Below, one piece after another: positions 3,844 through 46,632 of a stretch of 46,827 nucleotides of DNA. The notes under the pieces were generated by a model. It did not search any database. It saw only the letters and a list, made by a program, of their open reading frames with translations, and was not told where the DNA came from. The stretch lies in sequence record PQ308734.1, one strand, 5' to 3'. Source of the DNA: Klebsiella phage vB_Kp_Z1. How positions within the stretch are numbered: position 1 is the first letter of the stretch; each line of letters opens with the position of its first letter. A program made the position numbers and the translations under genes.

Positions 3844-6477
3844 ATGTACACTAGCGATGAGCTTTACCAGAAACAACTTGAGCTAGAAGGGGAAATGCAC
3901 GGCTATGGTGTCATTCGCTTTGACCGTAACAACCAGCGTGCAATTGACAGCGGTACACCTTCAGACACTGACTGGAACCGCCGCTTACTTTCTAACTTCA
4001 TTGAACCTATGGTGAAGGGTATCAATGCCTATAAGGAGTACTACAAAACTAAAGCTGGACGGCCTACGGTGGCTTTAAAGTACATTCGTCAGGTGCAGCC
4101 AGAGCAAGCAGCTTACATTGCCATTAAGAATATCCTTGATGTGCTGGGGAGTACCACATTTGATGCTAACTGGCTTGTTACCACTATTGGGCGTCGTATA
4201 GAGGATCAAGTGAGATTCACTAAGCTTGAGGAGGCTGCCCCTAAGTATGTTGGCAAGGTTAAGGATAGCTTAGCTAAGCGTAATTCACTACAGTATGCAC
4301 ACCAGCATAAAGTGCTGGTAGCTACTGAGAAGAAACTAGTTGAGAATCCAGAACGTGCGCAGCTTGAGTTACCACGCTGGCAAGAATGGGCGGAGGAGGA
4401 TTGCAAGCACGTTGGTAGCTTGCTGGTCAATATCTTTGAGCAGTGCATTTTGTTTGAAGGTGAGCCAGTAATCCGTAAGGAGGTGCAGACAGTTCGCAAA
4501 GGTACATTGGTTTTCATCAAGCCCACTGAGAAAGTTACCAAGTGGATTCATGAGTTCAGAGAGGCTATTGGTGGGCTTGCTCCGGCTTATGCACCTTGCG
4601 TAGTTCCTCCACTTGATTGGACTTCCCCATTTACTGGCGGGTTCCATACGGAAGCTGTTAGCAGCACTCTGCATCTTGCTAAGGTTCGCAATAAGCGCCA
4701 CTTGCGTAAGCTGACTAAAGAGCAGATGCCAGCAGTTTATAAGGCTGTAAACAATTTGCAGAAAGTACGCTGGCGTATCTCTGAGCGTGTGCTTGCAACT
4801 GCTAACACGCTTGTAGAGCTGGGCTTGCCTTATGCGCTCCCTTCTAAGGATGAAAGTGATTGGAAAGAGAAGAATCCATGCCCTGTGCCTGAGTATCTGC
4901 AAGACCTGCGAGGCGAGCAGCTAAAAGCGGCGCTTACTGCCAGTCAGTGGGAAGCGTTTCAGGAGTGGAAACAGTTGGCACGTCAGAACTACGATGAGGA
5001 GAGTGAGCGCGTAGCAAGCTTTAGGGAAGTTGTACGTACCTTAGGGCAAGCTAACCGCTACGTTGGATTTGATGCAATCTACTTTGTGTACACGCTGGAC
5101 TTTCGCGGACGTGTCTACTGCCAGAGTAGCCTTGTAAGCCCACAGGGTGGCGACTTGCAGAAAGCTCTCATCAAGTTTGCTGATGGAATGAAGCTGGGCG
5201 AGCGTGGTGAATACTGGTTTAAGGTGCATGGTGCTAACGAGTGGGGGTGGGATAAAAAGGAGTTTGACGAGCGCGTAGCCCTTGTAAGTGAGCCTGAATT
5301 CTGCGAGATGTGCCTAGACATTGCAAGTGACCCTGTGACCTTCAATGACTGGATTAAAGCTGATAAGCCGTGGCAGTTCCTCAACTGGTGCTTTGAGTAT
5401 GCTGACTTTCTGAAGCATGTGCAATCAGGCGGCAACCCACAGGACTTTGTAAGTTACATCCCGTGTGCGATGGATGGTTCTTGCTCTGGTATTCAACATT
5501 ATAGTGCCATGCTGCGTGATACAGTTGGTGGTGCTGCTGTTAACTTGGTTAACTCTGACAAGCCTAATGACATCTACGGTGAAGTGTGCAAGGTGGCTAT
5601 TAAGGAGCTGCAAGCAATTGCTGACGGCTCACAAGTATATGATGGCAAGATTGACCCTGTACTAGCACAACAGCTGGCTCAGGAGTGGCTACGTCTGCAA
5701 CCAAATCGCAGCCTGACCAAAAAGCCTGTTATGACCCTGCCGTATGGCAGCACTCAGTTGACTTGCCGCGAGCATGTTAGCCAGTGGCTGAAGGACTTGC
5801 AGAAGGAGGAGAATAAACGAGCTAAGGCAGAGTTTAGGGAGCCCATGAAAGTACACGCTTTCGGTGATGCAGATAGTGCGATGCCGCTCAAGTTTGCTGA
5901 GTCTCTCATGACTAGCATTGTTTGGCACTCTATCGGCAAAGTCGTAGTAGCTGCAAGAGCTGGTATGGCTTACATCAAAGCAGTAACAAGTTCAGTGGCT
6001 AAGATGAATATGCCGCTTGAGTGGACTACACCTACAGGCTTTATTGTCCGTCAGGAGATTTACCAGTTCACAACACGTCAGGTGAACACTCAGCTGCTGG
6101 GTGGGACTAAGTTTGTGGTTAGCACTAAGAGTAAGGATATTGATTATCATCGTATGATTAACTCCTGTGCGCCTAACTTTGTTCACTCAATGGATGCGAG
6201 CCACCTTACACTGGCAACTAACTACTTTGCAGATGCAGGTATTAGCAGCATCGCAGTAATTCATGACAGCTTTGGCACACATGCAGGAGCTACTGACCTG
6301 CTGCGTGAGCGCCTGCGAGCTTCAATGGTGGATATGTACGAACAGCATGATGTTATCACTAACTTCCTTGCTGAAACTGAGGGCAGACTTATGACAGCTT
6401 TTGAGCACATTCGTGTGCCTGAGCGCGGTGAGCTGCAACTTGATAGCATTAATCAAAGTACGTATGCTTTTGCGTGA
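3844..6477 (+). CDS. Single-subunit DNA-directed RNA polymerase (T7/SP6-like, 877 aa)
   Basis: Length and motifs match T7-family RNAPs: DFRGRVYC (motif A region), RSLTKKPVMTLPYGS (motif B), and HDSFGT (motif C with the catalytic Asp). AGGAAATCAG lies upstream of the ATG. Confidence 0.97.
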   Translation: MYTSDELYQKQLELEGEMHGYGVIRFDRNNQRAIDSGTPSDTDWNRRLLSNFIEPMVKGINAYKEYYKTKAGRPTVALKYIRQVQPEQAAYIAIKNILDVLGSTTFDANWLVTTIGRRIEDQVRFTKLEEAAPKYVGKVKDSLAKRNSLQYAHQHKVLVATEKKLVENPERAQLELPRWQEWAEEDCKHVGSLLVNIFEQCILFEGEPVIRKEVQTVRKGTLVFIKPTEKVTKWIHEFREAIGGLAPAYAPCVVPPLDWTSPFTGGFHTEAVSSTLHLAKVRNKRHLRKLTKEQMPAVYKAVNNLQKVRWRISERVLATANTLVELGLPYALPSKDESDWKEKNPCPVPEYLQDLRGEQLKAALTASQWEAFQEWKQLARQNYDEESERVASFREVVRTLGQANRYVGFDAIYFVYTLDFRGRVYCQSSLVSPQGGDLQKALIKFADGMKLGERGEYWFKVHGANEWGWDKKEFDERVALVSEPEFCEMCLDIASDPVTFNDWIKADKPWQFLNWCFEYADFLKHVQSGGNPQDFVSYIPCAMDGSCSGIQHYSAMLRDTVGGAAVNLVNSDKPNDIYGEVCKVAIKELQAIADGSQVYDGKIDPVLAQQLAQEWLRLQPNRSLTKKPVMTLPYGSTQLTCREHVSQWLKDLQKEENKRAKAEFREPMKVHAFGDADSAMPLKFAESLMTSIVWHSIGKVVVAARAGMAYIKAVTSSVAKMNMPLEWTTPTGFIVRQEIYQFTTRQVNTQLLGGTKFVVSTKSKDIDYHRMINSCAPNFVHSMDASHLTLATNYFADAGISSIAVIHDSFGTHAGATDLLRERLRASMVDMYEQHDVITNFLAETEGRLMTAFEHIRVPERGELQLDSINQSTYAFA

Positions 6478-6486
6478 GGTAATAAG

Positions 6487-6690
6487 ATGGAAAGTTTAAC
6501 TAAAGGGCAGACCGTGTGGATTCACAGCTACACAGTAGGCCATGGTAACAACATAAAGCTTAAACAGAGTGTACACACAGATAAAGAAAAGGTCTTGGAA
6601 GCGTGGCGCTTGCTGGGTGGTTGGTTTAATGAGGCTATAATTGTGGGAGCAGGTAACAATGAAACTTGTACTAATCCTAGGGCTTGCTGA
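6487..6690 (+). CDS. Small hypothetical protein (67 aa)
   Basis: ORF directly after the RNAP stop, with GAGG upstream. Confidence 0.35.
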   Translation: MESLTKGQTVWIHSYTVGHGNNIKLKQSVHTDKEKVLEAWRLLGGWFNEAIIVGAGNNETCTNPRAC

Positions 6691-6871
6691 TGGTCGTGTA
6701 ATTGAGTGGCCTGATGATGCTGCACCTAAGTTTGTTAAGCCACCTGTCAACCGTGAAGGTGTTACGCAAACTTATAGCCTTGTAGGTTTCGTAGGCAATG
6801 AGGCTTACTATCTCCCTGAGTACACTACAGCAGCTCAGGCAATCAAACTGCTAGCAGAAAGGGCAAGCTAA
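6659..6871 (+). CDS. Small hypothetical protein (70 aa from ATG 6659)
   Basis: The ORF track gives 6641-6871. The ATG at 6659 is preceded by GGGAGCAGG. Confidence 0.4.
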   Translation: MKLVLILGLADGRVIEWPDDAAPKFVKPPVNREGVTQTYSLVGFVGNEAYYLPEYTTAAQAIKLLAERAS

Positions 6872-6882
6872 CAACAATTACA

Positions 6883-6915
6883 GGCAGCTACTTAAGTGGC
6901 TGCCTTTTCTTTTTA
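6883..6915 (+). terminator. Rho-independent terminator after the RNAP gene block (counterpart of the T7 early terminator TE)
   Basis: GGCAGC-(10-nt loop)-GCTGCC hairpin at 6883-6903, followed by TTTTCTTTTTAT. Confidence 0.6.
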
Positions 6916-6956
6916 TCTGGCTTGTACTAGTTTGATAGTACAGGATTATTGATAAT

Positions 6957-7106
6957 AATTCTCATTAACTCATTAGCTCAGTCTAGTACACTAGACTAGA
7001 CTAGAGCGTAACACCTAACTAGTACAATTTTAGTTGAGAATTATTCTCATTAATCCTCAGTCTAGTATACTAGACTAGACCGGAGCGTACTAGTTGGCTA
7101 GTACAA
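6957..7106. repeat. Two tandem copies of a ~70-bp unit, each containing a GTCTAGTACACTAGAC-type palindrome
   Basis: Copy 1 is 6957-7027 and copy 2 is 7038-7106. The aligned unit is AATT(A)TTCTCATTAA..CAGTCTAGTAyACTAGACTAGAC..AGCG..CTAGTACAA. Confidence 0.6.
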
Positions 7107-7179
7107 CAGGCGTTCCTACGTGAAATCTGAGAAAGTTTGCGGGCAATTGTCCGTCAGAATTTAAAATTTTCTGAAAATA

Positions 7180-7202
7180 ATCAGGCGCTACAATAGGGGG
7201 AG
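7180..7202 (+). promoter_or_regulatory. Phage-RNAP promoter-like 23-mer (divergent copy) inside the origin-like region
   Basis: AGGCGCTACAATAGGGGGAG matches the core CTACAATAGG of the consensus ATTAGGCACTACAATAGGAGAAG. Confidence 0.45.
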
Positions 7203-7206
7203 CCCA

Positions 7207-7253
7207 GTAAGCTATAATAGTAAGCTATAGTAAGCTATAGTAAGCCCTGTAAG
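7207..7253. repeat. Tandem AGTAAGCTAT iterons (3 full copies plus partials)
   Basis: GTAAGCTATAATAGTAAGCTATAGTAAGCTATAGTAAGCC, followed by an AT-rich palindrome TCTCTCTTTATAGAGAGA at 7266-7284. A related TAGTAAGCTAT motif recurs at 39320-39340. Confidence 0.5.
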
Positions 7254-7306
7254 TTTCTCCTTATTCTCTCTCTTTATAGAGAGAATATAATATAGTAAGC
7301 CTTATT

Positions 7307-7346
7307 AGCCCTCTTGAGTGTAGTAGCTCAGGAGGGCTTTATTTTG
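7307..7346 (+). terminator. Rho-independent terminator
   Basis: AGCCCTCTTGAG-(8-nt loop)-CTCAGGAGGGCT hairpin, then TTTATTTTG. Confidence 0.55.
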
Positions 7347-7361
7347 TCTAGTACACTAGAC
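7346..7361. promoter_or_regulatory. GTCTAGTACACTAGAC palindrome (type A member of the CTAGTAC hairpin family)
   Basis: 7-bp arms GTCTAGT / ACTAGAC around a central AC. Other copies lie at 911-924, 6981-6996, 7060-7075, 14802-14817 and 43219-43234, with a related element at 10965-10978. Confidence 0.5.
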
Positions 7362-7367
7362 TGGAGA

Positions 7368-7390
7368 CTTAGGCACTCCAATAGATAACT
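7368..7390 (+). promoter_or_regulatory. Variant phage-promoter-like sequence (CTTAGGCACTCCAATAGATAACT)
   Basis: 17 of 23 positions match the consensus. Key core positions deviate (ACTAC becomes ACTCC, and AGG becomes AGA), so it may be weak or non-functional. Confidence 0.3.
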
Positions 7391-7407
7391 AATCAACGGA
7401 GCAGTTT

Positions 7408-7557
7408 ATGCAAACTAGTATTAAGCCAGAGAAGATGAAATCTAAGAAACTACGTAAGCTGAATGAGAAGGAGCAAGAGGAGCTTGCAATCCGTCAGCAT
7501 AAGGGCAAGCACCATAAGACCCAGCGTGGCAAGCGCCCTGAGTGGGAGGCTTACTAA
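7408..7557 (+). CDS. Small basic protein (49 aa)
   Basis: ATG 7408 follows AACGGAGCAG. The ORF is K/R-rich and its stop overlaps the next start (TAATG). Confidence 0.4.
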   Translation: MQTSIKPEKMKSKKLRKLNEKEQEELAIRQHKGKHHKTQRGKRPEWEAY

Positions 7558-7700
7558 TGAGGTACGTTATTAAGCAGCAACCTGATGGTCTTTGGTATGT
7601 AAAGGATGAGTATCGTAATAAGGTACTAGTATGGGATGCAAGCAGGGAATACTGTGAAGGCTTCTTAGCAGGTGTTGCAGCTGTTGGAGGTGATTGCTAA
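7557..7700 (+). CDS. Small hypothetical protein (47 aa)
   Basis: Translationally coupled ORF between 7408-7557 and the primase start. Confidence 0.4.
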   Translation: MRYVIKQQPDGLWYVKDEYRNKVLVWDASREYCEGFLAGVAAVGGDC

Positions 7701-8883
7701 TGGCTATTGTTATGAACCTACCTTGCCCTGCCTGCCAGAAGAATGGCGCAGACAAGAATGGTAAGTACCTTATGGTGTTTGAGGATGGCGGTAAGCTATG
7801 TATCCATACTCACAACCACGATAACCGTGAGCGCTACTATGAGCCACCTGATGGCAAAGACCCTGTGTTTGACCGTGAGATTGATGGTAAGGTTCAGTAT
7901 TCTCCTGAGCAGTTCCGCAAGCTGGAATCAGATGGCAAGCTGAGTGATTCTTTTACCCGTCATCTTGCTATGTCTGGCATGAGGATGAAAGACCGCTATG
8001 AGATTCTCACTGATGATGAGCGCACAGCTCTGGAGAATGAGTGGCGCATGGACATGGAGTGGTTTGAAGGGCTTTCCTTTAAGTCACTAGCTGACCGTGG
8101 CATACATGGGCTAATCGCCAAGCTATATAATGTGCGAGTAGGTCATGATGAGTCTGGTAAAGTTGTCCGTCATTACTACCCAACTTATGACAGCCAGCTA
8201 AACCTGATTGGCGCTAAGTGTCGAACGTTGCCTAAGGAATTTATGTTCGGGCATCTTGGTCGTCGCTTTGGTGACACTGCACTGTTTGGTATCCACACCC
8301 AGCAAGCTGTACTTGATAGCGGTACTTTCAAGAAAGGTAAGATGGGTAAGCTGCTGGTAGTTGGCGGTGAGTGTGATGCTATGGCAGCTCAGCAGATGCT
8401 GGTTAAGAGTCTTAATAAGCTTGAGCAGTTCAATGGCCTGAAGTCACTTGATGGCTTGCGCCTGGCTCATGTGTGGTCGCCAACTAAAGGGGAGACAGCG
8501 CTAGAGGAGATTGTAGCTAACCGTGAATACCTCAATCAGTTTGAGGAGATTGTATGGGGCTTTGATAACGACGATGTAGGCAACAAGCTTAACCTAGACT
8601 GCTCCCGCTTGTTCAGGCAGAAGTCTAAGTTCTTTAACTACCCAGCTGGATGCAAGGATGCTAATGATTGCTTGCTTAAAGGCAGGGAGAAGGAGTTCAT
8701 GGATTCGTGGTGGCAACCAGCAGAGGCTAGAGTTAAGGGCAAGCTGAGGGAAGCTGGTCACTACGCTAAGCGAGCTAAGCAAGCTGTAGAGATGGGCTTG
8801 TCATACTTCTGTGAAGCTCTCAACATGATTACCTTTGGTATTCGCCTGCGTTACTTGTCTGTGTGGGGTGCTGGTACTGGCGT
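7700..8883 (+). CDS. Primase-helicase, exon 1 (zinc-ribbon plus TOPRIM primase domain, reading into the first half of the helicase Walker A)
   Basis: CPACQ..C.H.H zinc-ribbon motif, then TOPRIM-like GGECDAMAA and FDNDDVGN. The reading frame stops right after SVWGAGTGV, which is half of a P-loop. ATG 7700 lies inside the track ORF 7694-8893. Confidence 0.8.
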
Positions 8884-9659
8884 TAACTTATAGCGCCGTT
8901 AGTCAGGAATGGCTAACGTAAACTGTGTGAATTCGGGGGAAGACTAGACCAGTTAATCCCGAGCCAGAAGACACCTACTAATGGAGGTGTTTATGTTGAA
9001 GAAGCTGATTAAAGGTTATGAGAATTATTGTGTTCGTGAAGATGGTGAAGTATTCAATGTTCGAACAGGAAGGCGGTTAATGCCTGATGTAAGTAACAGA
9101 GGGTACTGGAGGATTACAGTTTGCAAAGATAATAAGCCTAAGAAATTCACTATTCATAGGTTAGTTGCTGAACTGTTTATCCCAAATCCTAACGGATATG
9201 ACACTGTTAATCATATTAATGGTGATAAGTCTGATAACTCAATTGATAACCTTGAATGGATGAGTCAAGAGCAGAACCAAGAGCATGCAAAGCTTACTGG
9301 TCTGTGCCCTAAAGGTGAGCTAAACGGTATGAGTAAGTACAGTGAGCAGTTGATACACAGAGTATGTGAGCTGATCCAATCAGGTAAGGTTCGCAATGAG
9401 GTGTTAGCTGCAACAGGTATTACTAAGTCATCATTTGATGACATTCGACGCAGGAAGACTTGGCGGCACGTGAGCCAAGATTACTGCTGGTAATTAACCG
9501 TGTCTTCTGGTGTAACGACTATTCCGTAAGGAAGTACACTCAAGCGAGTGGAAGCGCACAGCACCCAGAACGGGTGATGATATAGTCTGGTCTGCATGGG
9601 GACATGCAGCAGTTCATAAGAGAACGGGGTGCAACTAGCGACTGCACTCGAACACAACG
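8884..9659 (+). other. Group I intron (776 nt) interrupting the primase-helicase gene inside its Walker A motif
   Basis: P1 is formed by exon GGCGU (8879-8883) and the internal guide GCGCC (8893-8897), with a U-G wobble at the splice site. P-like GAATTCGGGGGAAG and Q-like AATCCCGAGCC precede the ORF. R-like GTGTAACGACTA and S-like GATGATATAGTCT lie 3' of the ORF, followed by a CTGCATG-GGGA-CATGCAG hairpin (GNRA loop). Terminal G 9659 can act as omega-G. The predicted splice restores GAGTGVGKTEITTQHITSL, a good match to the T7 gp4 helicase motif H1. Confidence 0.7.
8993..9493 (+). CDS. Intron-encoded HNH homing endonuclease (NUMOD4-like N-terminus, HNH core, C-terminal HTH)
   Basis: GYENYCVREDGEVFNV matches the NUMOD4 pattern. 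HRLVAELF...VNHINGDKSDNSIDNLEWMSQEQN is an HNH motif. The ATG at 8993 follows GGAGG. The track ORF is 8981-9493. Confidence 0.8.
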   Translation: MLKKLIKGYENYCVREDGEVFNVRTGRRLMPDVSNRGYWRITVCKDNKPKKFTIHRLVAELFIPNPNGYDTVNHINGDKSDNSIDNLEWMSQEQNQEHAKLTGLCPKGELNGMSKYSEQLIHRVCELIQSGKVRNEVLAATGITKSSFDDIRRRKTWRHVSQDYCW

Positions 9660-10488
9660 AGGTAAGACTGAGATTACTACTCAGCATATTACTAGCCTTA
9701 TCAAGCAAGGTAAGCCAGTGGTAGCTATTTACCTTGAGAACAGTCCAGAAGAAGTCCTCAAGATGGTGGCAAGCCAGATGGCTAACAAGGACTTTATGAG
9801 TCCACCACTAGGTGAAGATGATGAGTATGATGCATCGAGGGATTACACCCAAGAGGAGTTAGACGCTACAATAGATGAACTAGTAGCAACTGGATTGCTT
9901 ATCATACCTGACCTTGAAGGTAGCAAGGATGTCAACGTAATCATGGAAGTCCTAGAAGATGCATTAGCATTAGGCTACCAGTATTATGTTATCGACAACC
10001 TGACAGCCTTTGAGCACTACGTAGATGGTAAGGTTCAAGTAGGTGTTGCTGCTATTGACGAGACTATGAAGCGCATAGGTACGTTTAAGGACGAGCATGA
10101 CGTTAACATTATGCTGCTCACTCACTTAAGCAGACCAGAGAAAGGTCGTGACCCCCACGAGCTTGGTGGTGAAGTCTATATCACTGACTTACGTGGTGCA
10201 GGCTCTATCAGCTTTTGGGCTAATGGTGTATGGGGCATCGAGCGTAACACTCAGGCTGAGGCTATTAGCGACAAGTGTACTACACTGCTGCGTAACCTTA
10301 AGTCTCGTGGCGTTGGTCACAAGGTTGGCTCAACAGTTGTGCTCCGCAAGGACATTACTACTGGTGAGTTTGAGTACCTTGAAGGTGTTCATGAGCTGCC
10401 GCAGGTTGGCAGGAAGAAGAAGGAGAGTAAGCGCGATGCGCAAGCTCAACGGTTTATTGAAGATGCAGAAACTGACGGAGAGTTCTGA
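9660..10488 (+). CDS. Primase-helicase, exon 2 (DnaB-family helicase domain with an acidic C-terminal tail ending in Phe)
   Basis: GKTEITTQ completes the Walker A. YYVIDNLTAFEH (H2 / Walker B), IMLLTHLSRPEKG (H3) and LRGAGSISFWANGVWGIERN (H4) follow. The protein ends in ...EDAETDGEF, as in T7 gp4. The track ORF 9604-10488 is in the same frame. Confidence 0.8.
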
Positions 10489-10935: not shown

Positions 10936-10980
10936 GCCACTTCGGTGGCTTTAGTATAGTGTACTAGACTGGAGTCTATC

Positions 10981-11253
10981 ATGGTTAAAACTACAAGCTG
11001 GCAGGCTTACCAAGAAATCCTGCGTGGTGGTGTAGCTGTTAAGCAAGCTGAGAAGGTCTTGCAAACTATCAACTACTATCCATCTGGTGTAAGCAGGGCA
11101 ACCATTGCTCGTGCTATGGGTATGCCTATCAATGCTGTCTGTGGTCGTGTCAACGAGCTGCTGAAAGCTGAGGTAATCTATGTGTCAGGTACTGGTAAGT
11201 GTCCAGTAACTGGTAGGACTGTTGAGATGCTGAAGGTGGTTGAGTATGACTAA
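10981..11253 (+). CDS. Putative winged-helix DNA-binding protein (90 aa)
   Basis: SRATIARAMGMPINAVCGRVNELL resembles a MarR/winged-HTH recognition segment. A palindromic element lies immediately upstream (10965-10978). Confidence 0.45.
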   Translation: MVKTTSWQAYQEILRGGVAVKQAEKVLQTINYYPSGVSRATIARAMGMPINAVCGRVNELLKAEVIYVSGTGKCPVTGRTVEMLKVVEYD

Positions 11254-14822: not shown

Positions 14823-14844
14823 CCGTACTAGTTAGCTAGTACGG
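14823..14844. promoter_or_regulatory. CCGTACTAG-TTAG-CTAGTACGG palindrome (type B member of the CTAGTAC hairpin family)
   Basis: 9-bp arms. Type B copies also occur at 473-490 (GTACTAG-CCAG-CTAGTAC), 7088-7105 (GTACTAG-TTGG-CTAGTAC) and 6923-6942 (TGTACTA-GTTTGA-TAGTACA). Confidence 0.5.
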
Positions 14845-14845
14845 T

Positions 14846-14868
14846 ATTAGGCACTACAATAGGAATAG
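14846..14868 (+). promoter_or_regulatory. Phage RNAP promoter (ATTAGGCACTACAATAGGAATAG)
   Basis: 21 of 23 positions match. The predicted +1 G is at 14862, and the transcript begins GGAAUAGCUGAG, reading straight into the tRNA-like element. Confidence 0.65.
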
Positions 14869-14946
14869 CTGAGTAGACTCAATTGGTAGAGCGGTACACC
14901 AGAAATGGCAGTATCGGTTGCTGGTTCAAGTCCAGCCTCAGCGACC
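14867..14946 (+). ncRNA. tRNA-like element lacking a canonical anticodon arm (tRNA pseudogene or structured decoy RNA)
   Basis: 6-bp acceptor stem GCUGAG/CUCAGC. U8-A9. A D-arm with conserved A14, A15, G18, G19 and A21 (ACUC-AAUUGGUA-GAGC). A perfect T-arm GCUGG-UUCAAGU-CCAGC, discriminator A, and CC. In the anticodon position there is a GGUAC-[A-CCA-GAAA-UGG-CA]-GUAUC hairpin with a GNRA tetraloop. I found no 5-bp stem with a 7-nt loop by hand. Confidence 0.35.
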
Positions 14947-15373: not shown

Positions 15374-15410
15374 GCCCCATTGGTCAATCGACCTTTGGGG
15401 CTTATTTTTG
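15374..15410 (+). terminator. Rho-independent terminator
   Basis: GCCCCA-TT-GGTC-AATC-GACC-TT-TGGGGC hairpin, then TTATTTTTG. The 3' half is almost identical to the post-capsid terminator (GGGGCTTATTTTTGTT-GGAGG). Confidence 0.65.
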
Positions 15411-15421
15411 TTGGAGGGTTT

Positions 15422-15895
15422 ATGTTTAATACTCTATTCTATATAGACGAATCAAGCCCAAGTGGTCTTAAGTGGAAATGCAACAGAGGTAATCAGAAAT
15501 TTAAGGATAAGCCAGCAGGCACTTTGAATAATAGAGGCTACTGGGTTGTTGAGGTAAATCATAAAGGTCTAGTAGTTCATAGGATTATAGCGATACTTAA
15601 CAATTTGTTAGATGATTACTATTGTGATTTAGAGGTAGATCATATTAACAGAGATAGGTCGGATAACAGGTTATCTAACTTAAGGGTTGTTACTAGGAGA
15701 ATAAACCTTACTAACAAGGGTATATACAAGAATAATAAATCTGGTGTAGCTGGTGTCTATTGGTGTAAGGGTAGACCTAAGTTATCTGTTATAATTAGCT
15801 ACAATGGCAAGAAGTATCACTTAGGATACTTTGACACATTACTAGATGCTGTATCAGCGAGGTTAGGTAAGCTTAATGAACTTAAACGAATTTGA
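15422..15895 (+). CDS. Free-standing HNH endonuclease with a C-terminal AP2-type DNA-binding domain (157 aa from ATG 15422)
   Basis: GYWVVEV...HRIIA...LEVDHINRDRSDNRLSNL is an HNH motif. NKSGVAGVYWCKGRPKLSVIISYNGKKYHLGYFDTLLDAVSA looks like an AP2 domain. GGAGGG precedes the ATG. The track ORF 15380-15895 begins with a TTG inside the terminator. Confidence 0.8.
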   Translation: MFNTLFYIDESSPSGLKWKCNRGNQKFKDKPAGTLNNRGYWVVEVNHKGLVVHRIIAILNNLLDDYYCDLEVDHINRDRSDNRLSNLRVVTRRINLTNKGIYKNNKSGVAGVYWCKGRPKLSVIISYNGKKYHLGYFDTLLDAVSARLGKLNELKRI

Positions 15896-36235: not shown

Positions 36236-36542
36236 TAAGAATTCAGCCACAGAGGATGATGTTGGTCTTATCCATAAGCTTGTTACTAAGGTCATTACTA
36301 AGAAGCTTGAGAAGTGGTTAGAGCTTATTGATAAAGGTGGTGATGTAGACTTGGTTGTAGATATGAAACAGCTTAAGTCTGCCATTGACTGGTGTGACAA
36401 GAATGGCATCGTATGTGCTGACCCAGCTGAACAAAGCGATAATGAACTTGGTGATAAGCTCTCTGAGATTCGCAAGGCTCAACATGCTCGTGGTGTAGTT
36501 GTTCCATTCAAAGAAGATGATGAGGAGGGCTATGGAACATGA
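36213..36542 (+). CDS. Terminase small subunit (gp18-like, 109 aa, GTG start)
   Basis: AGGAGG before GTG 36213, and an ATGA overlap with the large terminase start. Size and position fit T7 gp18. Confidence 0.5.
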   Translation: MASVSKSNKNSATEDDVGLIHKLVTKVITKKLEKWLELIDKGGDVDLVVDMKQLKSAIDWCDKNGIVCADPAEQSDNELGDKLSEIRKAQHARGVVVPFKEDDEEGYGT

Positions 36543-37078
36543 GGCGTGTTAACAGGAACGACAAGAAGGCACAGTTAGAAATGTGGGAGGAGCTTGAAGC
36601 GATACAGAAAGCTTTCCCCTTCACTGTGCAAGGCTTGTGGCTGTTTGCCTCACTTGTGCTTGAGAAGACTATCGTAGGCTCTCCTCACCTTAATCGCACA
36701 CAGAAAGATATTCTGAGCTTCCTGCTTAACGGTGGGAAGTATATAGGCATACAGGCAAGCCGTGGCATGACCAAGACAGTTATGGCAGCTATCCTCTGCT
36801 GCTTCTGCCTTATTCATATGCCGCACTACCGTATCATTGTATTCTCACAGAACGGCAAGCGAGCTAAGGAGATTGCAGGGTGGGTTGTAAAAATCTTCTA
36901 TGCTATCGACATCCTTGAGGTATTGCAGCCAGATACCTATGCTGGCGACCGTTCATCTATTGAAGCTTTTGACATTCATTGGTGTTTCCGTGGTGCTGAT
37001 AAGTCACCATCAGTTACTTGCTACTCTATTGAGTCGGGTGCTCAGGGTGCTCGTGCTGACCTTATACTCGCAGACGAT
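36539..37078 (+). CDS. Terminase large subunit, exon 1 (ATPase domain through Walker B)
   Basis: GIQASRGMTKT (Walker A-like) and LILADD (Walker B) align with T7 gp19 TSRQIGKST and IYIEDC. The ORF stops 3 codons after the Walker B motif, at 37087. Confidence 0.85.
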
Positions 37079-37928
37079 AAACTTTAACAATGTCGTCTAT
37101 AAACCATTTTAATTCGGTGGAACTCAGCCCTAACATGGGAAGACAATACCGAGCTAGGGCTAACGCCCGAGTGTAACGACTAGCCGAAAGGCGTAGGGCC
37201 AAGTGGCTCGAAACTTATGGGTGCAGTTATATGCACAAGATATAGTCTACTCTGCATAGAGATATGCAGCATCTCTTAAGGAGGTCTAACATGACCAAGC
37301 GTAATAGTGTTAAAGATACATCAGCATTTCGTACCAGAAAGTATGATGTAGGAAGTATCATCAAGACTAAATATGGTGATGTAAAGATACTAGAAATAAT
37401 TAAAGGTTATACAGATAGTGCTGGTAAGAGGTTTCGCACTAGGTGTGTTTGTATCTTCCTAGCCACTGGTTATGTAACTAATTGCCAACTATCTAACCTT
37501 ACTGTCGGTAAGGTGAAGGATATGAGGATGCCAACAGTGTATGGCGTTGGTTACATAGGGTCTGACATCAAGATAACAGCTCGCGGAACTTATGTTCGTA
37601 GGTTATATGACCTATGGGCTAACATGCTTAAGCGTTGTTATTTTAAGTCTGGTACAAGAAATGATGAAATTTACAAGGATGTAAAAGTTGATACAAGATG
37701 GCACAGTTTCACAAACTTTATGAACACTATACAAGACGTAGAGGGGTTTGAGCTGTTTGAAGCAGGGCTTGATGTTGCACTTGATAAAGATATAAAGGTC
37801 AAGGGTAATAAAGTCTACTCAAGAGATACCTGCATGTTTGTATCAACAAGGGATAACACTATTGCAGCACTTAATAAGAGGTGGCATGGAAAGTAACGAA
37901 GCCATGTTAATAAAGGATTGAAAGTTTG
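37079..37928 (+). other. Group I intron (about 850 nt) splitting the large terminase gene, related to the primase-helicase intron
   Basis: P1 is formed by exon GACGAU (37073-37078) and the guide GUCGUC (37092-37097), with a U-G wobble at the splice site. P-like AATTCGGTGGAAC, Q-like AATACCGAGC, R-like GTGTAACGACTAG and S-like AAGATATAGTCTAC follow, then a CTGCATA-GAGA-TATGCAG hairpin. This is the same core as intron 1. The ORF sits 3' of the core. The 3' splice site is predicted after G 37928 (G 37916 is the alternative), which rejoins ADD|QNSRTAQSREWLLEQ with the same D-to-W spacing as T7 gp19. Confidence 0.65.
37291..37896 (+). CDS. Intron-encoded homing-endonuclease-like / DNA-binding protein (201 aa from ATG 37291)
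   Basis: AAGGAGG precedes the ATG. The motif YGVGYIG...RRLYDLWANMLKRCY...VKVDTRWHSFTNFMNTI resembles the W..M..RC / W..F.NF DNA-binding module of phage homing endonucleases. No HNH or GIY-YIG catalytic motif is evident. Confidence 0.55.
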   Translation: MTKRNSVKDTSAFRTRKYDVGSIIKTKYGDVKILEIIKGYTDSAGKRFRTRCVCIFLATGYVTNCQLSNLTVGKVKDMRMPTVYGVGYIGSDIKITARGTYVRRLYDLWANMLKRCYFKSGTRNDEIYKDVKVDTRWHSFTNFMNTIQDVEGFELFEAGLDVALDKDIKVKGNKVYSRDTCMFVSTRDNTIAALNKRWHGK

Positions 37929-39227
37929 CAAAACTCCCGTACAGCTCAGAGTCGTGAGTGGTTGCTTGAGCAGTCATTAGAGTTTGAGTCAATCAACCAG
38001 TACGGTCGTATCATCTACCTAGGCACACCTCAGGGTGTTGAGTCTATCTATAACACACTCCCAGCTCGTGGTTACGTTATGCGTATCTGGCCTGGCCGCT
38101 ATCCAACAGCTGAGCAGCTTGAGTTTTATGGAAAGGCTCTGGCTCCCTTATTCCGTAAGGATATTGAAGCTGACCCAAGCTTGCAAAGTGGCGGTGGGCT
38201 TGATGGTACTATGGGCAAGCCAACAACACCTGCTATGTATGATGAGGAATTGTTGCAAGAGAAGGAGATGAGGCAAGGTCTTGCTAAGTTCATGTTGCAG
38301 TTCATGGTTCATACTGGTATGTCTGACCGTGACCGCTTCAAGCTTAAGCTAGAGAATCTGGTACTCATGAACTTCAATGCCATGCAAGGTGCTGTTATGC
38401 CTGTGTGGAACAGCGACCAGCGTAGCATGTGGCAAGCTGCCCCTCGCTTTGGTACACGTCCACAAGACAGATTTTACTTTGCCATGCAGCAGCCATACAT
38501 CATGCGTGACTTCGACCTAACTGTTATGTTCATTGACCCAGCTGGAGGTGGCTCTCGCTCACAGGATGAGATGGGTTATGCTATAACTAAGCTGTTAGGT
38601 ACTTATGTCTACATATATGATGTTGATGGTGTCAAGGGTGGTTATGAGCAATCAGAGCTGATGAAGCTTGTGCAAGCTGCTAAGGATGCTAAGGTCAACG
38701 TTTGCTATGTGGAAAAGAACTATGGTAACGGTGCTCACTTTGCAATGCTCAAGCCACTGTTTGAGAAGTTCTATCCGGAGTGTAGGCTAGAGGAGATTAA
38801 CTCCTCAGGTCAAAAGGAACTACGTATCATTGATACACTGGAACCACTGCTAGGCCAGCATCGCTTGGTAGTCTCACAGACAGCTGTTATGAAGGATTAC
38901 AACAGCATTCAGAAGTACCCAGCAGAGGTCAAGATGACTTACAGCTGCTTCTACCAACTTGCTCACATAACGAGCGACCGTGGGGCGCTTAGGCATGATG
39001 ACCGCTTAGACGCGCTGGCTGGGGCTGTGGCGCAGATTGTCAACTACATCGACTATGACCAAGAGAAAGCCGAGAAAGAGCGGCAGGCAGAGGCTGACAA
39101 GCATTTCTTTGAGGTTATGGCTAACCCCAATGGATTCGTTCACACGATGATGCATGGTGGTGATTTTATGAGCTATGTTGAGCAACAAAACACCGGAGCC
39201 AACGCCCTCAAGAAATACTTTAATTAA
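37929..39227 (+). CDS. Terminase large subunit, exon 2 (nuclease / C-terminal domain)
   Basis: REWLLEQSLEFESINQYGRIIYLGTPQG aligns with T7 gp19 DSWLAIQPVISSGRRSKIIITTTPNG. The track ORF 37926-39227 starts at a TTG that is unlikely to be real. Confidence 0.85.
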   Translation, partial: QNSRTAQSREWLLEQSLEFESINQYGRIIYLGTPQGVESIYNTLPARGYVMRIWPGRYPTAEQLEFYGKALAPLFRKDIEADPSLQSGGGLDGTMGKPTTPAMYDEELLQEKEMRQGLAKFMLQFMVHTGMSDRDRFKLKLENLVLMNFNAMQGAVMPVWNSDQRSMWQAAPRFGTRPQDRFYFAMQQPYIMRDFDLTVMFIDPAGGGSRSQDEMGYAITKLLGTYVYIYDVDGVKGGYEQSELMKLVQAAKDAKVNVCYVEKNYGNGAHFAMLKPLFEKFYPECRLEEINSSGQKELRIIDTLEPLLGQHRLVVSQTAVMKDYNSIQKYPAEVKMTYSCFYQLAHITSDRGALRHDDRLDALAGAVAQIVNYIDYDQEKAEKERQAEADKHFFEVMANPNGFVHTMMHGGDFMSYVEQQNTGANALKKYFN

Positions 39228-39260
39228 TTGTAATTTTCTCTTAGTTTTCAGGCGTTTGGT

Positions 39261-39283
39261 ATTAGGCACTACAATAGGAGAAG
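39261..39283 (+). promoter_or_regulatory. Phage RNAP promoter, exact consensus (ATTAGGCACTACAATAGGAGAAG), for the tail-fibre gene
   Basis: Identical to the capsid promoter 24139-24161. Confidence 0.7.
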
Positions 39284-39289
39284 CTATAA

Positions 39290-39392
39290 GAAGAACAGTA
39301 AGTATACAGTAGCTATAGTAAGCTATTGTTAGCCCTAGTAGCTACTGTACTTCTTCCTTATTATTTCTTATATCTTATTATAGAGGAGCTAT
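39290..39392. repeat. Imperfect inverted repeat containing TAGTAAGCTAT motifs in the 5' leader of the fibre gene
   Basis: ACAGTAAGTATACAGTAGCTATAGTAAGCTATTGTTAGCCCTAGTAGCTACTGTACTTCTTCC. The arms CAGTAGCTA / TAGCTACTG pair, and the motif echoes the 7207-7253 iterons. Confidence 0.4.
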
Positions 39393-42300
39393 ATGACTAC
39401 ATATAAGCTTAAGCAAGTTAAAACATCAGAGAGCTTTGTAGGGCTTTCTGATACCCCAGCAACCCTTGCTGGAAGTGGTGGTAAAATCCTTAAGGTTAAC
39501 TCATCTGGTACAGGTATTATACTATCTGATGAGAGTAAGTTAGCTCTCTATGAGGATGGTGTATTCCAACCACCTGTTGATGGAATTAACGTAGTTGGTA
39601 TTAGTGTAGATAAAGAGGAGAATGGCATCGCTACAATTAGCGGTGTAGGTCTTCCACTAGCTAACTTACAAGTTGGTGAAGTCATTGCAATTGACCCCGT
39701 CTCAAAGAGAGCTAAGGGTACTGGCATCGTATCTAACGAGAAAGGTGTTTCTGTTGGTGCTGATGGTGTTATTGTAGGACAGCACCGTATAAGCTCCATT
39801 GGTGAGGCTGTAGGTGTTACTAACGTAGCTACTGGTGGAACTACGGTTTCCATTGGTATGCCACTCTCTAGCACTGGTCAGGCTAAGCCAACTTACATCA
39901 GCTTTACCTCAGCACTTACTGAGGTTGTTAGAAATGCTGATGTCACTAACACTATCAAAGACCCTGAGTGGTATGTAGGTCAGCCACAGCTTGATGAAGT
40001 CCTGTTTGGAATCACAATCAAGGATGTTGTATACCCTCAGTCTAATGTGTACTTATATGGCTTTGGGGATGGCAAGGAGCTGTTTAAGGTTCTCCTTGGT
40101 GACTTTGTTGCAGGTACTAATACCTTTGTACTAAGTACACCTGTGGTTATTAAGAATGTTAACTCTATCCAAGTTGCCCTGCTATCTGATTATGGTTCTG
40201 TTTATGTTAAGGGTGATTCAAGTGGAGTACCCGCATACTCAGCTAAGCTCCGCACCTTTGAATACAAACAGCTTATATCTGAACTAGGTATCAAGCAAGC
40301 TGTAGGTGGTACGCCAATAAGTGCAAATAACTTGGTGTTCCCTTCTGCTTCTGTATTTGTTGATAATGTAAGTGGTGATGTAGTAGTTGATACAAGCTTT
40401 GGGGTTGACGATGAGACTACATCTATCCAAGGTGTTGGTAGCCTTAAGTTCAAAGGCGCTACAGTTAAGTCTACAACAGCTTCTAATGGAGAGGTTACAG
40501 CTGAGGTTACAATACCTCCACCAGAAGGTATCACTATCAACAGTGAAGGTTCTACTTTAACTAATGTTGGTGAGATTAACTTACTGCCACCACTTAAGGT
40601 GTCTAGTGACAACACTGGCTCTGCTCGTATTGCCATTGATCATAATGCCTACCAGCAGATGCTACCGCCATCTCATCTGGCTTATTTGACAGAAGAAGTT
40701 AGCTTAGTTGGAAAGATTGGCGACCAGCGTAATCTTCACACTGGAGCAATCTGGTTTGATGACATCATTACACAGAGTGGTGACATCTACACAAGTCGTG
40801 ATGAGAAGGTTTACGGCATCCAAGAGGTTGATGGTCTTGACCCAAACATCACAGGTGGTAATGACTTCCTTATAGCTTACAAGCTTTGTTTTGATGGTGT
40901 TGCACCAGCTGATGGCATTGTACGTATTGCACTTGCTGACCCCACCACAGGCGACTACTTGGTTGATGCCAATGGGTTTGCAATGGTTGCACAGCGTCAG
41001 TATGTAGCTGGTGAAGTCCTTGGTGAGCTACTTGTAGTTGGTGTTGTTAGGGCAACTGCCATCACACCATTCAAGTGTCTGTGCCTTGATAACTTCCAAG
41101 CTAACCTGTTGACTATCAAAGACCGCGGTGAATCTACATCTGGCCTTATGATTCAGTGTATGCTGACTAATGGTAAGACTGGTGAGGCTATCAAGCAGTT
41201 TGAGCTTGATACAGGTTCAAATATAGCTGTTGATAGCCACTACTTTGGTAACATCATTGACAGCCTTGCATATGCATCAAGTCAGAGCATGCCAGCAACA
41301 ACAATACCTGCACTAACAGGTATCAGAGAGGGTGACGGCTGGTTCTTAAACAACACAACTAGTGTTACCCTGTCATCTGGCAGTGGGCTATTTAAGGTAT
41401 CTAGTAGTGGTCAGAATACTGCATACTTCTCATTAGGTAAGATTTTCAATGCTGATAAAACTCAGCTTCTTCGAAACAAGGGGCTGTCAGTAATCAGTAC
41501 ACTAGGGACACCTGATTGTGGGTTCTTGATTAAACTTGCATATTGGACAGGTGCGCCTGATGAGTGCCCAAGTAATATCTTTACAGGGTCACTTAATGAT
41601 AACCCTGTTCTGGCGCAAGGTTGGAACCTGCTAAGTAGCAGTATCTCTTGCCCTGAGGATGTTGTTAATGAGTTCAACACACTTACTGGAAGTTTTGTTG
41701 TACCACCAACAGCAAATAACTTTGCAATCCTAATCTATCCAGTGTCTCAGCAAAATCCTATTAATCTTACTATTAGTAAGTTTGAGATTGGTGCTGTTGA
41801 CCCCTTCACTGGTTACTATGTTAAAGATAGCAAGCTTGTTAGTGAGCAGCATCTTTATAAGGACATAAACTACAACCAGTTGTATATGAACTCAGAGGGC
41901 TACTCTGCACTTCGATATACCATTAACAGCACACCTGTTACTGGTCTACCTATGCCAGTTGGTCATGTTGGTAAAGGCTCAGCTGGTGTTACTATTGATA
42001 GGTCTATTAACCATGTTAGTGGTTTTAATGGCGAAGGTGCTATCAAGTTTAATACTGATGGCAATGTGACAATCAGCACACAGCTGCGTGTTTATGCAGG
42101 TGAATCTGTTCCAGCTGGGACTATGTCTTCAGTAACCTTCTGGTATTCTACTGTAAGCTCAACTGGTGTATTCACTAAGATAGCTGACTCAGAGACTACC
42201 TTCAATGTTACTGGTGGTGACAAGGTTCCCCTGTCAATCCTCATGAAGAAGTTTAAGCTGAGTGTTAAGGCAGGGGATAGAATTGCTTTGTTTGCTAAAG

Positions 42301-43206: not shown

Positions 43207-43249
43207 TAAGGTTGGTCAGTCTAGTACGCTAGACTGGCCTCTTTCTATT

Positions 43250-46544: not shown

Positions 46545-46632
46545 GCTAGGTAGTTAGGGTAAGCTGCTGTTAACTGGAGTAAGCTATATGATAGGTTATG
46601 GAGAAGGTTAAGTAAGCTAGCTAGGTAGCCAT
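46545..46632. repeat. Right-end CTAGGTAG motifs and TAAGCT repeats adjacent to the terminal repeat
   Basis: GCTAGGTAGTT at 46545 and GCTAGCTAGGTAGCC at 46617. The same motif family occurs near the left end and inside the DTR. Confidence 0.45.

Follow-up and report, generated by a model that had tools for sequence, protein, structure and literature searches.

What is the function of the half kilobase of non-coding DNA that separates the early genes of Klebsiella phage vB_Kp_Z1 from its replication genes? The window, i.e. the whole stretch of 46,827 nucleotides analyzed here (record PQ308734.1), is a complete Gajwadongvirus-like genome with a terminal repeat of 127 bp. Its RNA polymerase (RNAP) gene spans 3844-6477, and the primase-helicase gene, with Toprim and DnaB_C domains, starts at 7694. 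The RNAP gene is separated from the control region by two small ORFs and an early terminator; the intergenic region covers 6872-7407, and the next ATG is at 7408. The elements are ordered as the early terminator (TE), three palindrome types, a phage promoter (P1), an AT-rich leader with a ATAGTAAGCT repeat, a second terminator (T2), a second promoter (P2) and the replication genes. The region is best explained as the switch from early to middle genes in a T7-like phage of the Gajwadongvirus type. It is a real conserved control region, which, judged from its sequence, could also be a T7-style replication origin.

The layout is kept in 12 relatives with hosts in Klebsiella, E. coli, Pectobacterium, Vibrio and Edwardsiella, and it is seen alike in independently sequenced isolates and metagenomes. 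The intergenic identity to Edwardsiella phage DT115P1 is 74%, compared with 53% at the third codon positions of the RNAP gene, and by this measure the region is under purifying selection. The locus had been described as non-coding, and this agrees with our analysis: there is no ORF of 40 aa or longer in the unit from P1 to T2, the ATAGTAAGCT repeat has stop codons in every frame, and a GTG ORF of 14 codons at 7120 is broken in PP99. No tRNA was found in the control region, and an Rfam search of 6700-7600 at E <= 10 returned sub-threshold noise alone, with nothing near a gathering score.

All the elements listed in the preliminary description were found in the region, far beyond chance and with small coordinate shifts. 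Its early and second terminators correspond to TE (6882-6915, + strand), which would stop host RNAP after the last early ORF, and T2 (7307-7346, + strand), a strong intrinsic terminator that would close the P1 unit. TE has a 10-bp stem (6882-6905) with 6 GC pairs followed by TTTCTTTTTA, with the T-run directly 3' of the stem, and is kept in all relatives. T2 has a 13-bp stem (7307-7338) followed by TTATTTT and is the most conserved segment, being 100% identical to ECBP5 and 93% identical to DT115P1; its hairpin is specific to the + strand owing to G-U pairs, and a terminator after the capsid gene at 25357 is built in the same way. The activity of both terminators is predicted from these features. 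Nufs112, a Pantoea phage, has no T2, and its homologous P1 leader runs directly into an RBS and an HNH gene.

A phage promoter consensus of about TATTAGGCACTACAATAGGAGA recurs before genes, with 6 matches where 0.07 are expected. P1 (7180-7202, + strand; core CGCTACAATAGG), the first site on the genome that makes a convincing phage-RNAP promoter, had been noted as a promoter-like site and matches the 12-base core CACTACAATAGG with one mismatch, and its orthologues in ECBP5, MR4 and JSF38 match the core perfectly. Upstream it reads ATCAGG in this phage instead of ATTAGG. By analogy with T7 promoters, transcription would start at about G7196. The conserved 73-bp spacer before P1 (7107-7179, + strand) holds a small hairpin at 7140-7153 (CGGGC-AATT-GTCCG) and, just 5' of P1, the AT-rich palindrome CAGAATTTAAAATTTTCTG; it is 86% identical to ECBP5 and 68% to DT115P1, and is still recognizable in Nufs112. 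P2 (7367-7390, + strand; CACTCCAATAGATAAC; predicted +1 at G7384) is a putative variant promoter for the DNA-metabolism genes, with an RBS (GGAG, 7398-7401) and the ATG at 7408 downstream. All 12 relatives in which this segment is retained share its core and 3' flank without change, and variation is seen 5' of the core (GAGACTTAGG; UViG28890 has GAGCTTTAGG, the Edwardsiella phages CAGCTGTTAGG). With the palindrome before it (PAL-A3) and the RBS, P2 forms a segment 100% identical to ECBP5 and 82% to DT115P1. The variant promoter previously noted within 7346-7390 is strictly conserved among the relatives.

The predicted P1 leader contains a hypervariable 10-bp minisatellite, (ATAGTAAGCT)n, at 7203-7256 on the + strand. 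Exact copies of AGTAAGCTAT lie at 7206-7215, 7219-7228 and 7229-7238, followed by a truncated copy at 7239-7246, and TRF delimits 7217-7245 with period 10, 2.9 copies and 100% match. There are 3 copies in the window, 6 in UViG17271, 10 in RCIP0089, 11 in Roth32 and 19 in RCIP0053, and the phages with 3 to 19 copies are 92-97% identical to the window. ECBP5, PP99, MR4, JSF38, the Edwardsiella phages and Nufs112 have 5-6 degenerate units. One metagenome contig is broken inside the array; the minisatellite breaks assemblies, and it could be a strain-typing marker. After the array comes hairpin 2 (7262-7287, + strand), the AT-rich palindrome that had already been pointed out, whose 10-nt arms (TATTCTCTCT ... 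AGAGAGAATA; 7262-7271 and 7278-7287) are 100% complementary and which takes a CCCTCT...AGAGGG form in relatives. The conserved stretch between hairpin 2 and T2 (TATAATATAGTAAGCCTTATT; 7288-7306, + strand) is predicted to be unpaired in both the MFE and the consensus folds, and the homologous position in Nufs112 holds an RBS and an ATG.

The leader as a whole is predicted to fold more stably than shuffled sequences (z = -4.3). The consensus RNA fold starts with a closing stem at the 5' end, followed by a second hairpin and the hairpin of the terminator. G-U variation is seen on the + strand, and double changes occur in 3 of the 35 pairs, in sequences that are very alike. In non-expanded relatives the repeat region is predicted to be a long irregular 5' hairpin in which the 5' end of the transcript pairs just past the array (z = -6.0 in ECBP5). 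A long hairpin of the RNase III type is plausible in these relatives, but the main reading does not build on it, as the expanded arrays have lost it.

The origin of T7 is defined by phage promoters plus an AT-rich stretch (PMC8373140), and the preliminary description had recognized the same combination here, at the position of the T7 primary origin. Both observations are supported: the RNAP gene precedes the region and the primase-helicase gene follows it, and the region has rightward phage promoters, identified by sequence, followed by 68% AT over 7203-7306 against 54% for the genome. The segment 7208-7307, at 71% AT, is among the five most AT-rich 100-bp windows of the genome, although it is not unique and is less AT-rich than its counterpart in T7. 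The AT-rich stretch of the T7 origin is about 61 bp long with about 79% AT. In position and anatomy the region is best read, by analogy, as a T7-type transcription-primed origin at P1, a tentative reading to which we give slightly less than an even chance.

According to this reading, host RNA polymerase would halt at TE, and a block of protein-binding palindromes would come next. The unit of P1 and its leader would be the primary origin of the phage: P1 would transcribe only the AT-rich non-coding leader of about 150 nt ending at T2, phage RNAP would open the AT-rich repeat DNA from about 7196, and the phage DNA polymerase would take over the short transcript to prime the first leading strand. 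T2 would clear the polymerases that are not used for priming, and the repeats would be easily melted non-coding filler rather than binding sites for an initiator. P2 would then drive the primase-helicase and the remaining replication genes. Since the origins of T7-like phages beyond T7 and T3 are essentially unmapped, P1 (7196), the leader and T2 make a precise and testable candidate, for which the natural alleles of 3-19 repeats are a ready-made mutant series.

When compared to the T7 primary origin (phi1.1A/phi1.1B plus an AT-rich region, gene 1-1.1), the phage region likewise lies 3' of the RNAP gene and 5' of the replication genes, has two rightward phage promoters with an AT-rich non-coding stretch after the first, and would involve no initiator protein. 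The differences are that two small ORFs and TE separate it from the RNAP gene, that its AT-rich stretch, with 68-71% AT, consists of a hairpin and a 10-bp minisatellite that varies, and that the strong T2 and a palindrome stand between the two promoters. To our knowledge the T7 origin has no terminator after its promoters, which counts against the origin reading, as does the ATCAGG mismatch upstream of P1. Moreover, comparable AT-rich windows follow the phage promoters at 14947, 18487 and 39324. The GC skew of the genome is flat, with a monotonic cumulative curve that has no inflection, and the searchable literature on Gajwadongvirus holds nothing on origins, repeats or TrpR sites.

A second promoter-plus-leader cassette, which counts both for and against the origin reading, lies at 39260-39395 (+ strand), flanked by the genes for the large terminase and the tail needle-knob/spike. 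It has a perfect consensus promoter with +1 at 39277, GTAAGCT-type repeats, a pyrimidine tract, an RBS and an ATG, and is conserved in ECBP5, PP99, RCIP0089 and DT115P1. The repeat motif had been reported to reappear just past the fibre promoter; there is indeed a copy at 39317, and the local alignment between the two leaders scores 55, compared with 15.2 +/- 2.3 for shuffles. By this alignment 39277-39395 is a true paralogue of the P1 leader, and it is also simply the 5' leader of the tail gene. The secondary origins or 'replication promoters' of T7 are phiOR, phiOL and phi6.5 (PMC8373140). The cassette sits right after the large terminase gene, the place of phiOR in T7, but an RBS and a tail gene of 1173 aa directly adjoin it, and it is therefore at least an mRNA leader. 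For phiOL, the phage site at 780 is a weak promoter match only.

Because the same type of leader serves an ordinary mRNA at 39277-39395 and feeds the HNH gene in Nufs112, leader function alone could explain the conservation. A rival reading is an ordinary middle-gene leader or attenuator with no role in replication, which we regard as possible but improbable. P1 would then be no more than the first promoter of class II. T2, terminating in part, would set how much transcription passes on into the replication genes and would also catch read-through by host RNAP, and P2 would be a source of additional expression; the 10-bp array would have arisen neutrally by slippage within a 5' leader, the conserved part of which is a stabilizing 5' stem-loop. 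Besides the paralogue and Nufs112, the long irregular 5' hairpin of the non-expanded relatives, the unconstrained repeat copy number and the likeness of T2 to the late terminator at 25357 are consistent with this. On the other hand, it leaves unexplained why a strong terminator with 93-100% conservation stands between two promoters aimed at the same genes, and why all Gajwadongvirus relatives have non-coding sequence where Nufs112 has an RBS. Attenuator and origin are compatible with each other, since T7 promoters serve as both mRNA promoters and origin.

The promoter and terminator around a non-coding unit would also suit a stand-alone small RNA gene, an explanation we judge unlikely. The RNA from P1 to T2, about 150 nt long (about 310 nt in RCIP0053), would act in trans through its AGUAAGCUAU repeats, which could sequester a host nuclease or RNA-binding protein like a decoy or sponge, and repeat expansion would be adaptive, for which the expanded pseudo-ToxI repeats of phage phiTE are a model. 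Such a gene would fit a unit with its own promoter and terminator and no ORF, a fold more stable than shuffles, a consensus structure of three stems with G-U variation on the + strand, and the fast copy-number shifts between near-identical phages. Against it, no Rfam family matched, the covariation is thin, at 10 nt and without structure the unit falls short of those in known repeat-RNA antitoxins, and repeats of the same kind occur in an mRNA leader elsewhere. The sole candidate target was an 11-nt perfect pairing of 6801-6811 with 7292-7302, which was rejected as a conserved coding motif with no covariation in the Edwardsiella phages or UViG28890.

The repeats had been taken for iterons in the preliminary description. 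In a classical iteron-type origin, of the plasmid or lambda type, the AGTAAGCTAT copies would be bound by an initiator protein of the phage or the host, which melts the AT-rich palindrome next to them. The direct repeats do adjoin such a palindrome, and the motif is enriched over the genome (22 matches at up to one mismatch against 6.6 expected) and recurs near the right end at 46559-46644. However, iterons are units of about 17-22 bp, set apart from each other, with fixed number and phasing, whereas the unit here is 10 bp, contiguous and head-to-tail, with 3 to 19 copies, and the array lies within a transcribed leader. A scan of the small ORFs against Pfam and PHROGs turned up no Rep- or initiator-like protein, there are no DnaA or IHF boxes within 6872-7407, and we know of no initiator protein used by T7-like phages. 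The repeats are thus real but form a transcribed minisatellite, and an iteron origin is very improbable. The last explanation, a degraded-gene remnant (which the preliminary description had named as a finding that would undo its proposal) or an assembly artefact, is suggested by the differing number of small ORFs after the RNAP gene among relatives, but it is scarcely credible, since a tblastn search of 6872-7407 with the additional small proteins that ECBP5, PP99, JSF38 and Nufs112 encode found no match, the region is better conserved than synonymous sites, and the layout is found in independent isolates and metagenomes.

We now turn to the palindromes between TE and P1. They had been described as two tandem units of about 70 bp, each carrying a palindrome. 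The tandem units are real and each has that palindrome, but they measure about 80 bp: the first (6943-7027) contains PAL-C at 6950-6964 (TGATAATAATTCTCA), PAL-A at 6981-6996 (GTCTAGTACACTAGAC) and a degenerate PAL-B at 7008-7025, and the second, ancestral one (7028-7106) contains PAL-C at 7035-7049 (TGAGAATTATTCTCA), PAL-A at 7060-7075 (GTCTAGTATACTAGAC) and PAL-B2 at 7087-7104 (GTACTAGTTGGCTAGTAC). Their sub-blocks are 82-90% identical at a spacing of 79-85 bp. The extra copy is confined to the window, RCIP0089 and RCIP0053, and nine other relatives have one unit; all relatives keep the arrangement of the second unit, in the Edwardsiella phages with symmetrically changed arms. What the preliminary description missed is that several of these palindromes look, from their sequence, like operators for the host TrpR and for a phage winged-helix protein. 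Hexamer pairs at 6932-6959 and 7044-7071 were considered as a conserved sigma-70 promoter among the palindromes and rejected, as their spacing varies among relatives and their count does not exceed that in shuffles.

The TrpR-like sites are the less expected result, as the two in the region and the four elsewhere match native E. coli operators in quality. A TrpR PWM was built solely from the five native E. coli K-12 operators (trpEDCBA, aroH, trpR, mtr and aroL), which score 16.8-23.9 bits on it. Six sites in the phage genome reach at least 16.8 bits, the score of the weakest native operator, where 0.06 are expected; they score 17.2-25.3 bits, follow the pattern GTACTAG-N4-CTAGTAC and fall into three non-coding clusters. 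In the control region these are PAL-B1 (6924-6941; GTACTAGTTTGATAGTAC), which scores 22.0 bits, is conserved in ECBP5 and is identical to the aroL operator GTACTAGTTTGATGGTAT at 16 of 18 positions, and PAL-B2, also with 22.0 bits; the degenerate PAL-B has 15.3 bits. Both lie about 100 bp upstream of P1. The site at 14825-14842 is identical at 17 of 18 positions to the 1TRO operator, TGTACTAGTTAACTAGTACA (PMC2504314), and stops 2 bp short of position -17 in a phage promoter, a spacing that is conserved. Orthologous sites are present in ECBP5 and DT115P1, and the sites are thus conserved across Klebsiella, E. coli and Edwardsiella phages. Like the E. coli operators, they share GTACT-N8-AGTAC with CTAG cores, within the native range of CTAG/CTCG; unlike these, they are found in a lytic genome and do not overlap a conserved sigma-70 promoter.

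The two control-region palindromes therefore look like consensus-grade candidate operators for the host TrpR, and with sites of operator grade on the phage DNA, TrpR with tryptophan would dock there. The phage does not appear to encode the protein itself: the best tblastn hit with K-12 TrpR has an E-value of 0.29 and lies inside a virion gene, and Pfam and PHROGs gave nothing for it. A phage protein of TrpR-like specificity may still be an alternative binder of the PAL-B sites, although it would not be a TrpR homologue. Evidence against the host reading comes from MR4, which carries the same TrpR-like sites and is reported on Pseudomonas syringae (PMC7415359). If TrpR binds, a host amino-acid sensor would be wired into the control region of a lytic phage, and phage replication or transcription could be coupled to the tryptophan status of the host; alternatively, replicating phage DNA could titrate TrpR and derepress the supply of aromatic amino acids. 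We found no report in the searchable literature of TrpR sites in such phage control regions. The full combination, namely a lytic T7-like phage with operator-grade TrpR sites flanking its putative origin, at its left end and abutting its own promoter, together with a P1-driven, terminator-bounded and repeat-expandable non-coding RNA that primes replication, is doubtful as a whole.

PAL-A, GTCTAGTA[C/T]ACTAGAC, occurs a third time as PAL-A3 (7346-7361; GTCTAGTACACTAGAC), which ends 6 bp before position -17 of P2, and with up to 3 mismatches allowed the genome has 16 strand-hits where 0.55 are expected. In the Edwardsiella phages PAL-A3 is swapped for GTATAGCATACTATAC, in which both arms are altered symmetrically. 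A further PAL-A (GTCTAGTACACTAGAC) lies directly upstream of the RBS of the gene at 10981-11253 (90 aa), whose product is predicted to have a winged-helix fold of the MarR/ArsR type (pLDDT 86); its similarity to MarR/ArsR-type proteins at the sequence level was not significant. PAL-A is probably the operator of this protein, to which it is linked by adjacency. The arrangement resembles autoregulated repressors of the MarR/ArsR type, with the 16-bp palindrome upstream of the winged-helix gene and also beside other promoters, but the phage protein is shorter than MarR proteins and is without their dimerization helices. A FadR operator was rejected for PAL-A on inspection against the 1H9T DNA (PMC2504314), as the spacing is one base short, although the half-sites are alike. 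For PAL-C, a comparison with the Fur-box consensus gave a match of 16/19 at 6951-6969.

The window proved to be a complete phage genome, with its first 127 bases exactly repeated at the end (direct terminal repeat, 1-127 and 46701-46827). Over the queried 1.5 kb (6400-7900), it is 89-97% identical to Klebsiella phages RCIP0089, RCIP0053 and Roth32, Escherichia phage ECBP5, Pectobacterium phage PP99, "Pseudomonas" phage MR4 and Vibrio phage JSF38, all of the genus Gajwadongvirus, family Autographiviridae. The single-subunit RNA polymerase (RNAP) gene (3844-6477) is followed by two small conserved ORFs and then by the gap under study (6872-7407, 536 bp), 3' of which come a pair of tiny ORFs and a primase-helicase gene with Toprim and DnaB_C domains. 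The gap is non-coding, with any ORF shorter than 40 aa and no Rfam family in it, and its conservation shows purifying selection. It is 74% identical to that of Edwardsiella phage DT115P1 and 85% to that of ECBP5, compared with 53% and 78%, respectively, at RNAP third codon positions; against these two phages the identity is 93-100% for the second terminator, T2 (7307-7346), and 82-100% for the segment with palindrome PAL-A and promoter P2. The suggestion that the repeats are remnants of a degraded gene is dismissed by this excess over third codon positions and by the absence from the gap of any trace of the relatives' extra genes.

The homologous gap was gathered from 12 relatives, and the order of elements is common to all Gajwadongvirus-type genomes and three Edwardsiella phages. 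It runs from the early terminator, TE (6882-6915), through palindromes PAL-B, PAL-C, PAL-A and PAL-B and a conserved spacer of ~73 bp to P1, a predicted phage-RNAP promoter (7180-7202, + strand). GTAAGCT-type repeats, a pyrimidine tract with a short hairpin, a conserved stretch predicted to be unpaired and T2 come next, and then PAL-A, the variant promoter P2 (7367-7390, + strand), an RBS and the first middle gene. Both terminators, the two promoter-like sites, the 10-bp repeats, the AT-rich palindrome and all three copies of GTCTAGTA[C/T]ACTAGAC were found within one base of where the preliminary description had placed them. It needs real correction only for the tandem units: these are present, but each is ~80 bp (6943-7027 and 7028-7106) instead of 70, and the possession of two is a lineage-specific duplication, seen in the window, RCIP0089 and RCIP0053 alone. 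Observed and expected counts were 6 vs 0.07 for the promoter consensus, 16 vs 0.55 for strand-hits of the PAL-A palindrome GTCTAGTACACTAGAC, and 22 vs 6.6 for AGTAAGCTAT with at most one mismatch.

When the points for and against are weighed, a T7-type origin at the gap, as originally proposed, has slightly less than an even chance. The primary origins of T7 are phi1.1A/B and phiOR is among its secondary ones; every origin requires a phage promoter (PMC8373140). The gap matches the T7 primary origin in position, P1 is the first convincing phage promoter along the genome, and the non-coding stretch directly 3' of it is 68-71% AT, among the top five windows of the genome. The transcription unit from P1 has no coding content and ends at a very conserved terminator, T2, and a paralogous promoter-leader cassette stands at the place of T7 phiOR. 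On the other hand, AT-richness is found elsewhere in the genome too, a leader of this type serves as an mRNA leader elsewhere, and T7 is not known to have a terminator at the place equivalent to T2. GC skew is flat across the genome.

The cassette at the phiOR place comprises a perfect consensus promoter at 39267 and a leader of the P1-leader kind; with the promoters excluded, the two leaders align with a score of 55, against 15.2 +/- 2.3 for shuffles. The stretch at 39290-39392, once offered as a secondary origin, belongs to a paralogous leader at the T7 phiOR position, but this leader, which is conserved in relatives, also serves the mRNA of the tail needle-knob/spike gene, whose RBS follows it. 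Nufs112, a Pantoea phage, lacks T2, and there the P1 leader continues into an RBS and an HNH gene. That the gap holds just such a plain leader or attenuator is possible but rather unlikely, and that its closed, non-coding unit yields a trans-acting small RNA is doubtful. The origin, leader and small-RNA readings are not mutually exclusive because T7 origin promoters also make mRNA.

The 10-bp unit ATAGTAAGCT is arranged head to tail in widely variable copy number, with 3 exact copies in the window, 6 in IMG/VR contig UViG17271, 10 in RCIP0089, 11 in Roth32 and 19 in RCIP0053, the flanks in these three named phages being 92-97% identical to the window. One metagenome contig terminates within the array, and in more distant relatives the units are degenerate, 5-6 in number and 9-11 bp in length. 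The array spans +8 to +60 of the predicted P1 transcript and closes all reading frames, since TAG and TAA recur at the 10-bp period. RNA folding gives a long irregular hairpin for the repeat region in non-expanded relatives, and in every genome the P1 transcript 5' end pairs with the sequence just 3' of the array. No initiator gene was found among the small ORFs scanned against Pfam or PHROGs, nor DnaA or IHF boxes in the gap. Taken together with the unit length, unconstrained copy number and transcribed position, this does not fit a reading of the repeats as classical iterons. The G-run at the predicted P1 start (7196-7202 and orthologous sites) also varies among close relatives (GGGGGAG, AGGGAG, GGGGGGAG, GGGAG), and is a second slippage-prone tract, at the transcript 5' end.

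The literature searched on the genus Gajwadongvirus contains predicted promoters only, with no origin, 10-bp repeats or TrpR sites. We class the gap as a T7-style promoter-plus-AT-rich unit to which a bounding terminator, a hypervariable minisatellite and host-repressor-like operators are added. In the proposed mechanism, early transcription by host RNAP would stop at TE, as the terminator structure suggests, and newly made phage RNAP would fire P1 with +1 at ~7196, as the consensus match suggests. By analogy with T7, transcription would open the AT-rich repeat DNA, and the phage DNA polymerase would extend the short P1 RNA as the first rightward primer. RNAPs unused for priming would end at T2, whose build is that of the late terminator at 25357, and P2 would express the primase-helicase and remaining replication genes. 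TrpR and a phage winged-helix protein might bind the flanking palindromes and modulate these priming or transcription events.

Judged by sequence, the gap palindromes are probably bound by proteins. PAL-B (GTACTAG-N4-CTAGTAC) differs little from the operator of the Trp repressor crystal structure, TGTACTAGTTAACTAGTACA (PMC2504314). With a weight matrix from five native E. coli K-12 operators alone (trp, aroH, trpR, mtr and aroL), six sites in the phage genome (130, 418, 473, 6924, 7087 and 14825; 17.2-25.3 bits) score at least as high as the weakest native operator, where 0.06 are expected in random genomes. Site 6924-6941 is identical to the E. coli aroL operator at 16/18 positions, and sites 130-147, 418-435 and 473-490 lie in the non-coding left end. 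Site 14825-14842, which with 25.3 bits scores higher than every native E. coli operator under the same matrix, stops 2 bp short of position -17 of the phage promoter at 14852. Orthologous sites, including those at 130, 418, 473 and 14825, are kept in ECBP5 and DT115P1; their variants with CTCG/CGAG cores break the hairpin symmetry and are still within native operator variation, and therefore protein recognition is favoured over an RNA hairpin. A search of 2.9 million viral contigs gave several exact GTACTAG-N4-CTAGTAC sites per contig only for Gajwadongvirus-like ones, and CTAG tetranucleotides number 15-24 per kb in three regulatory gaps vs 2.9 per kb elsewhere. No phage-encoded TrpR homologue was detectable. 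A caveat to the TrpR reading is that MR4, which keeps the sites, was reported on Pseudomonas syringae (PMC7415359).

A phage protein may have PAL-A as its operator. Its seven copies (910, 6981, 7060, 7346, 10954, 14802 and 43219) are always in non-coding DNA at conserved places, and in the Edwardsiella phages the arms are altered symmetrically and genome-wide. The copy at 10954-10969 is directly 5' of the RBS of gene 10981-11253 (90 aa), the product of which is, with good confidence, a predicted winged helix-turn-helix protein (pLDDT 86, pTM 0.77) with MarR/ArsR regulators as best structural matches. By adjacency only, this product is a candidate PAL-A binder; it is also a candidate for an autoregulated phage repressor with all PAL-A sites as possible targets. 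A further copy lies in a hairpin with an 11-bp stem, and the hairpin and the T-rich tract behind it (43214-43239) form a terminator-like site 3' of ORF 42928-43206 that is conserved in ECBP5. PAL-C as a Fur box is a lead only: against the E. coli Fur-box consensus, it matches at 16/19 positions at 6951-6969 and 17/19 in Roth32 (0.025 expected per genome at 15/19 or better), and it is a perfect 7-1-7 TGATAATnATTATCA in Roth32 and DT115P1, but the Fur-box match is lost in the clade of ECBP5, MR4 and JSF38. The match also covers the Edwardsiella phages and Nufs112.

The left end (560-990) holds CTAGGTAGCT in more than 10 copies, some of them in a 22-bp-period array (626-706), upstream of a strong sigma-70-like promoter (TTGACT-17-TATAGT, 959-987), and GTAAGCT motifs cluster at the right end (46559-46644). 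The AT-rich left end also has a weak phage-promoter-like site, TACTACAATAAG (780-791), reminiscent of T7 phiOL in position; its counterparts in ECBP5 (CACTACAATAAG) and DT115P1 (GACTACAATAGG) match better. Two phage promoters flank a tRNA-like element (14867-14944) that scores 35.3 bits against Rfam tRNA (gathering score 29) with a 13-nt anticodon loop and no ARAGORN call; the sequence is annotated as tRNA-Ser in Roth32, and the leaders at this position in ECBP5 and DT115P1 are unrelated to it. The primase-helicase gene is split into a Toprim part (7694-8893) and a DnaB_C part (9604-10488) that are separated by an HNH endonuclease ORF (8981-9493), and is a single continuous gene of ~2 kb in PP99, ECBP5 and DT115P1; a second HNH ORF is at 15380-15895. 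The large terminase gene (36539-39227) also looks interrupted, its T7-type nuclease domain lying within 37926-39227 (433 aa) downstream of an unrelated, very AT-rich 210-aa ORF (37264-37896). In ECBP5 it is one 617-aa gene, and in DT115P1 it is annotated with the same split as in the window.
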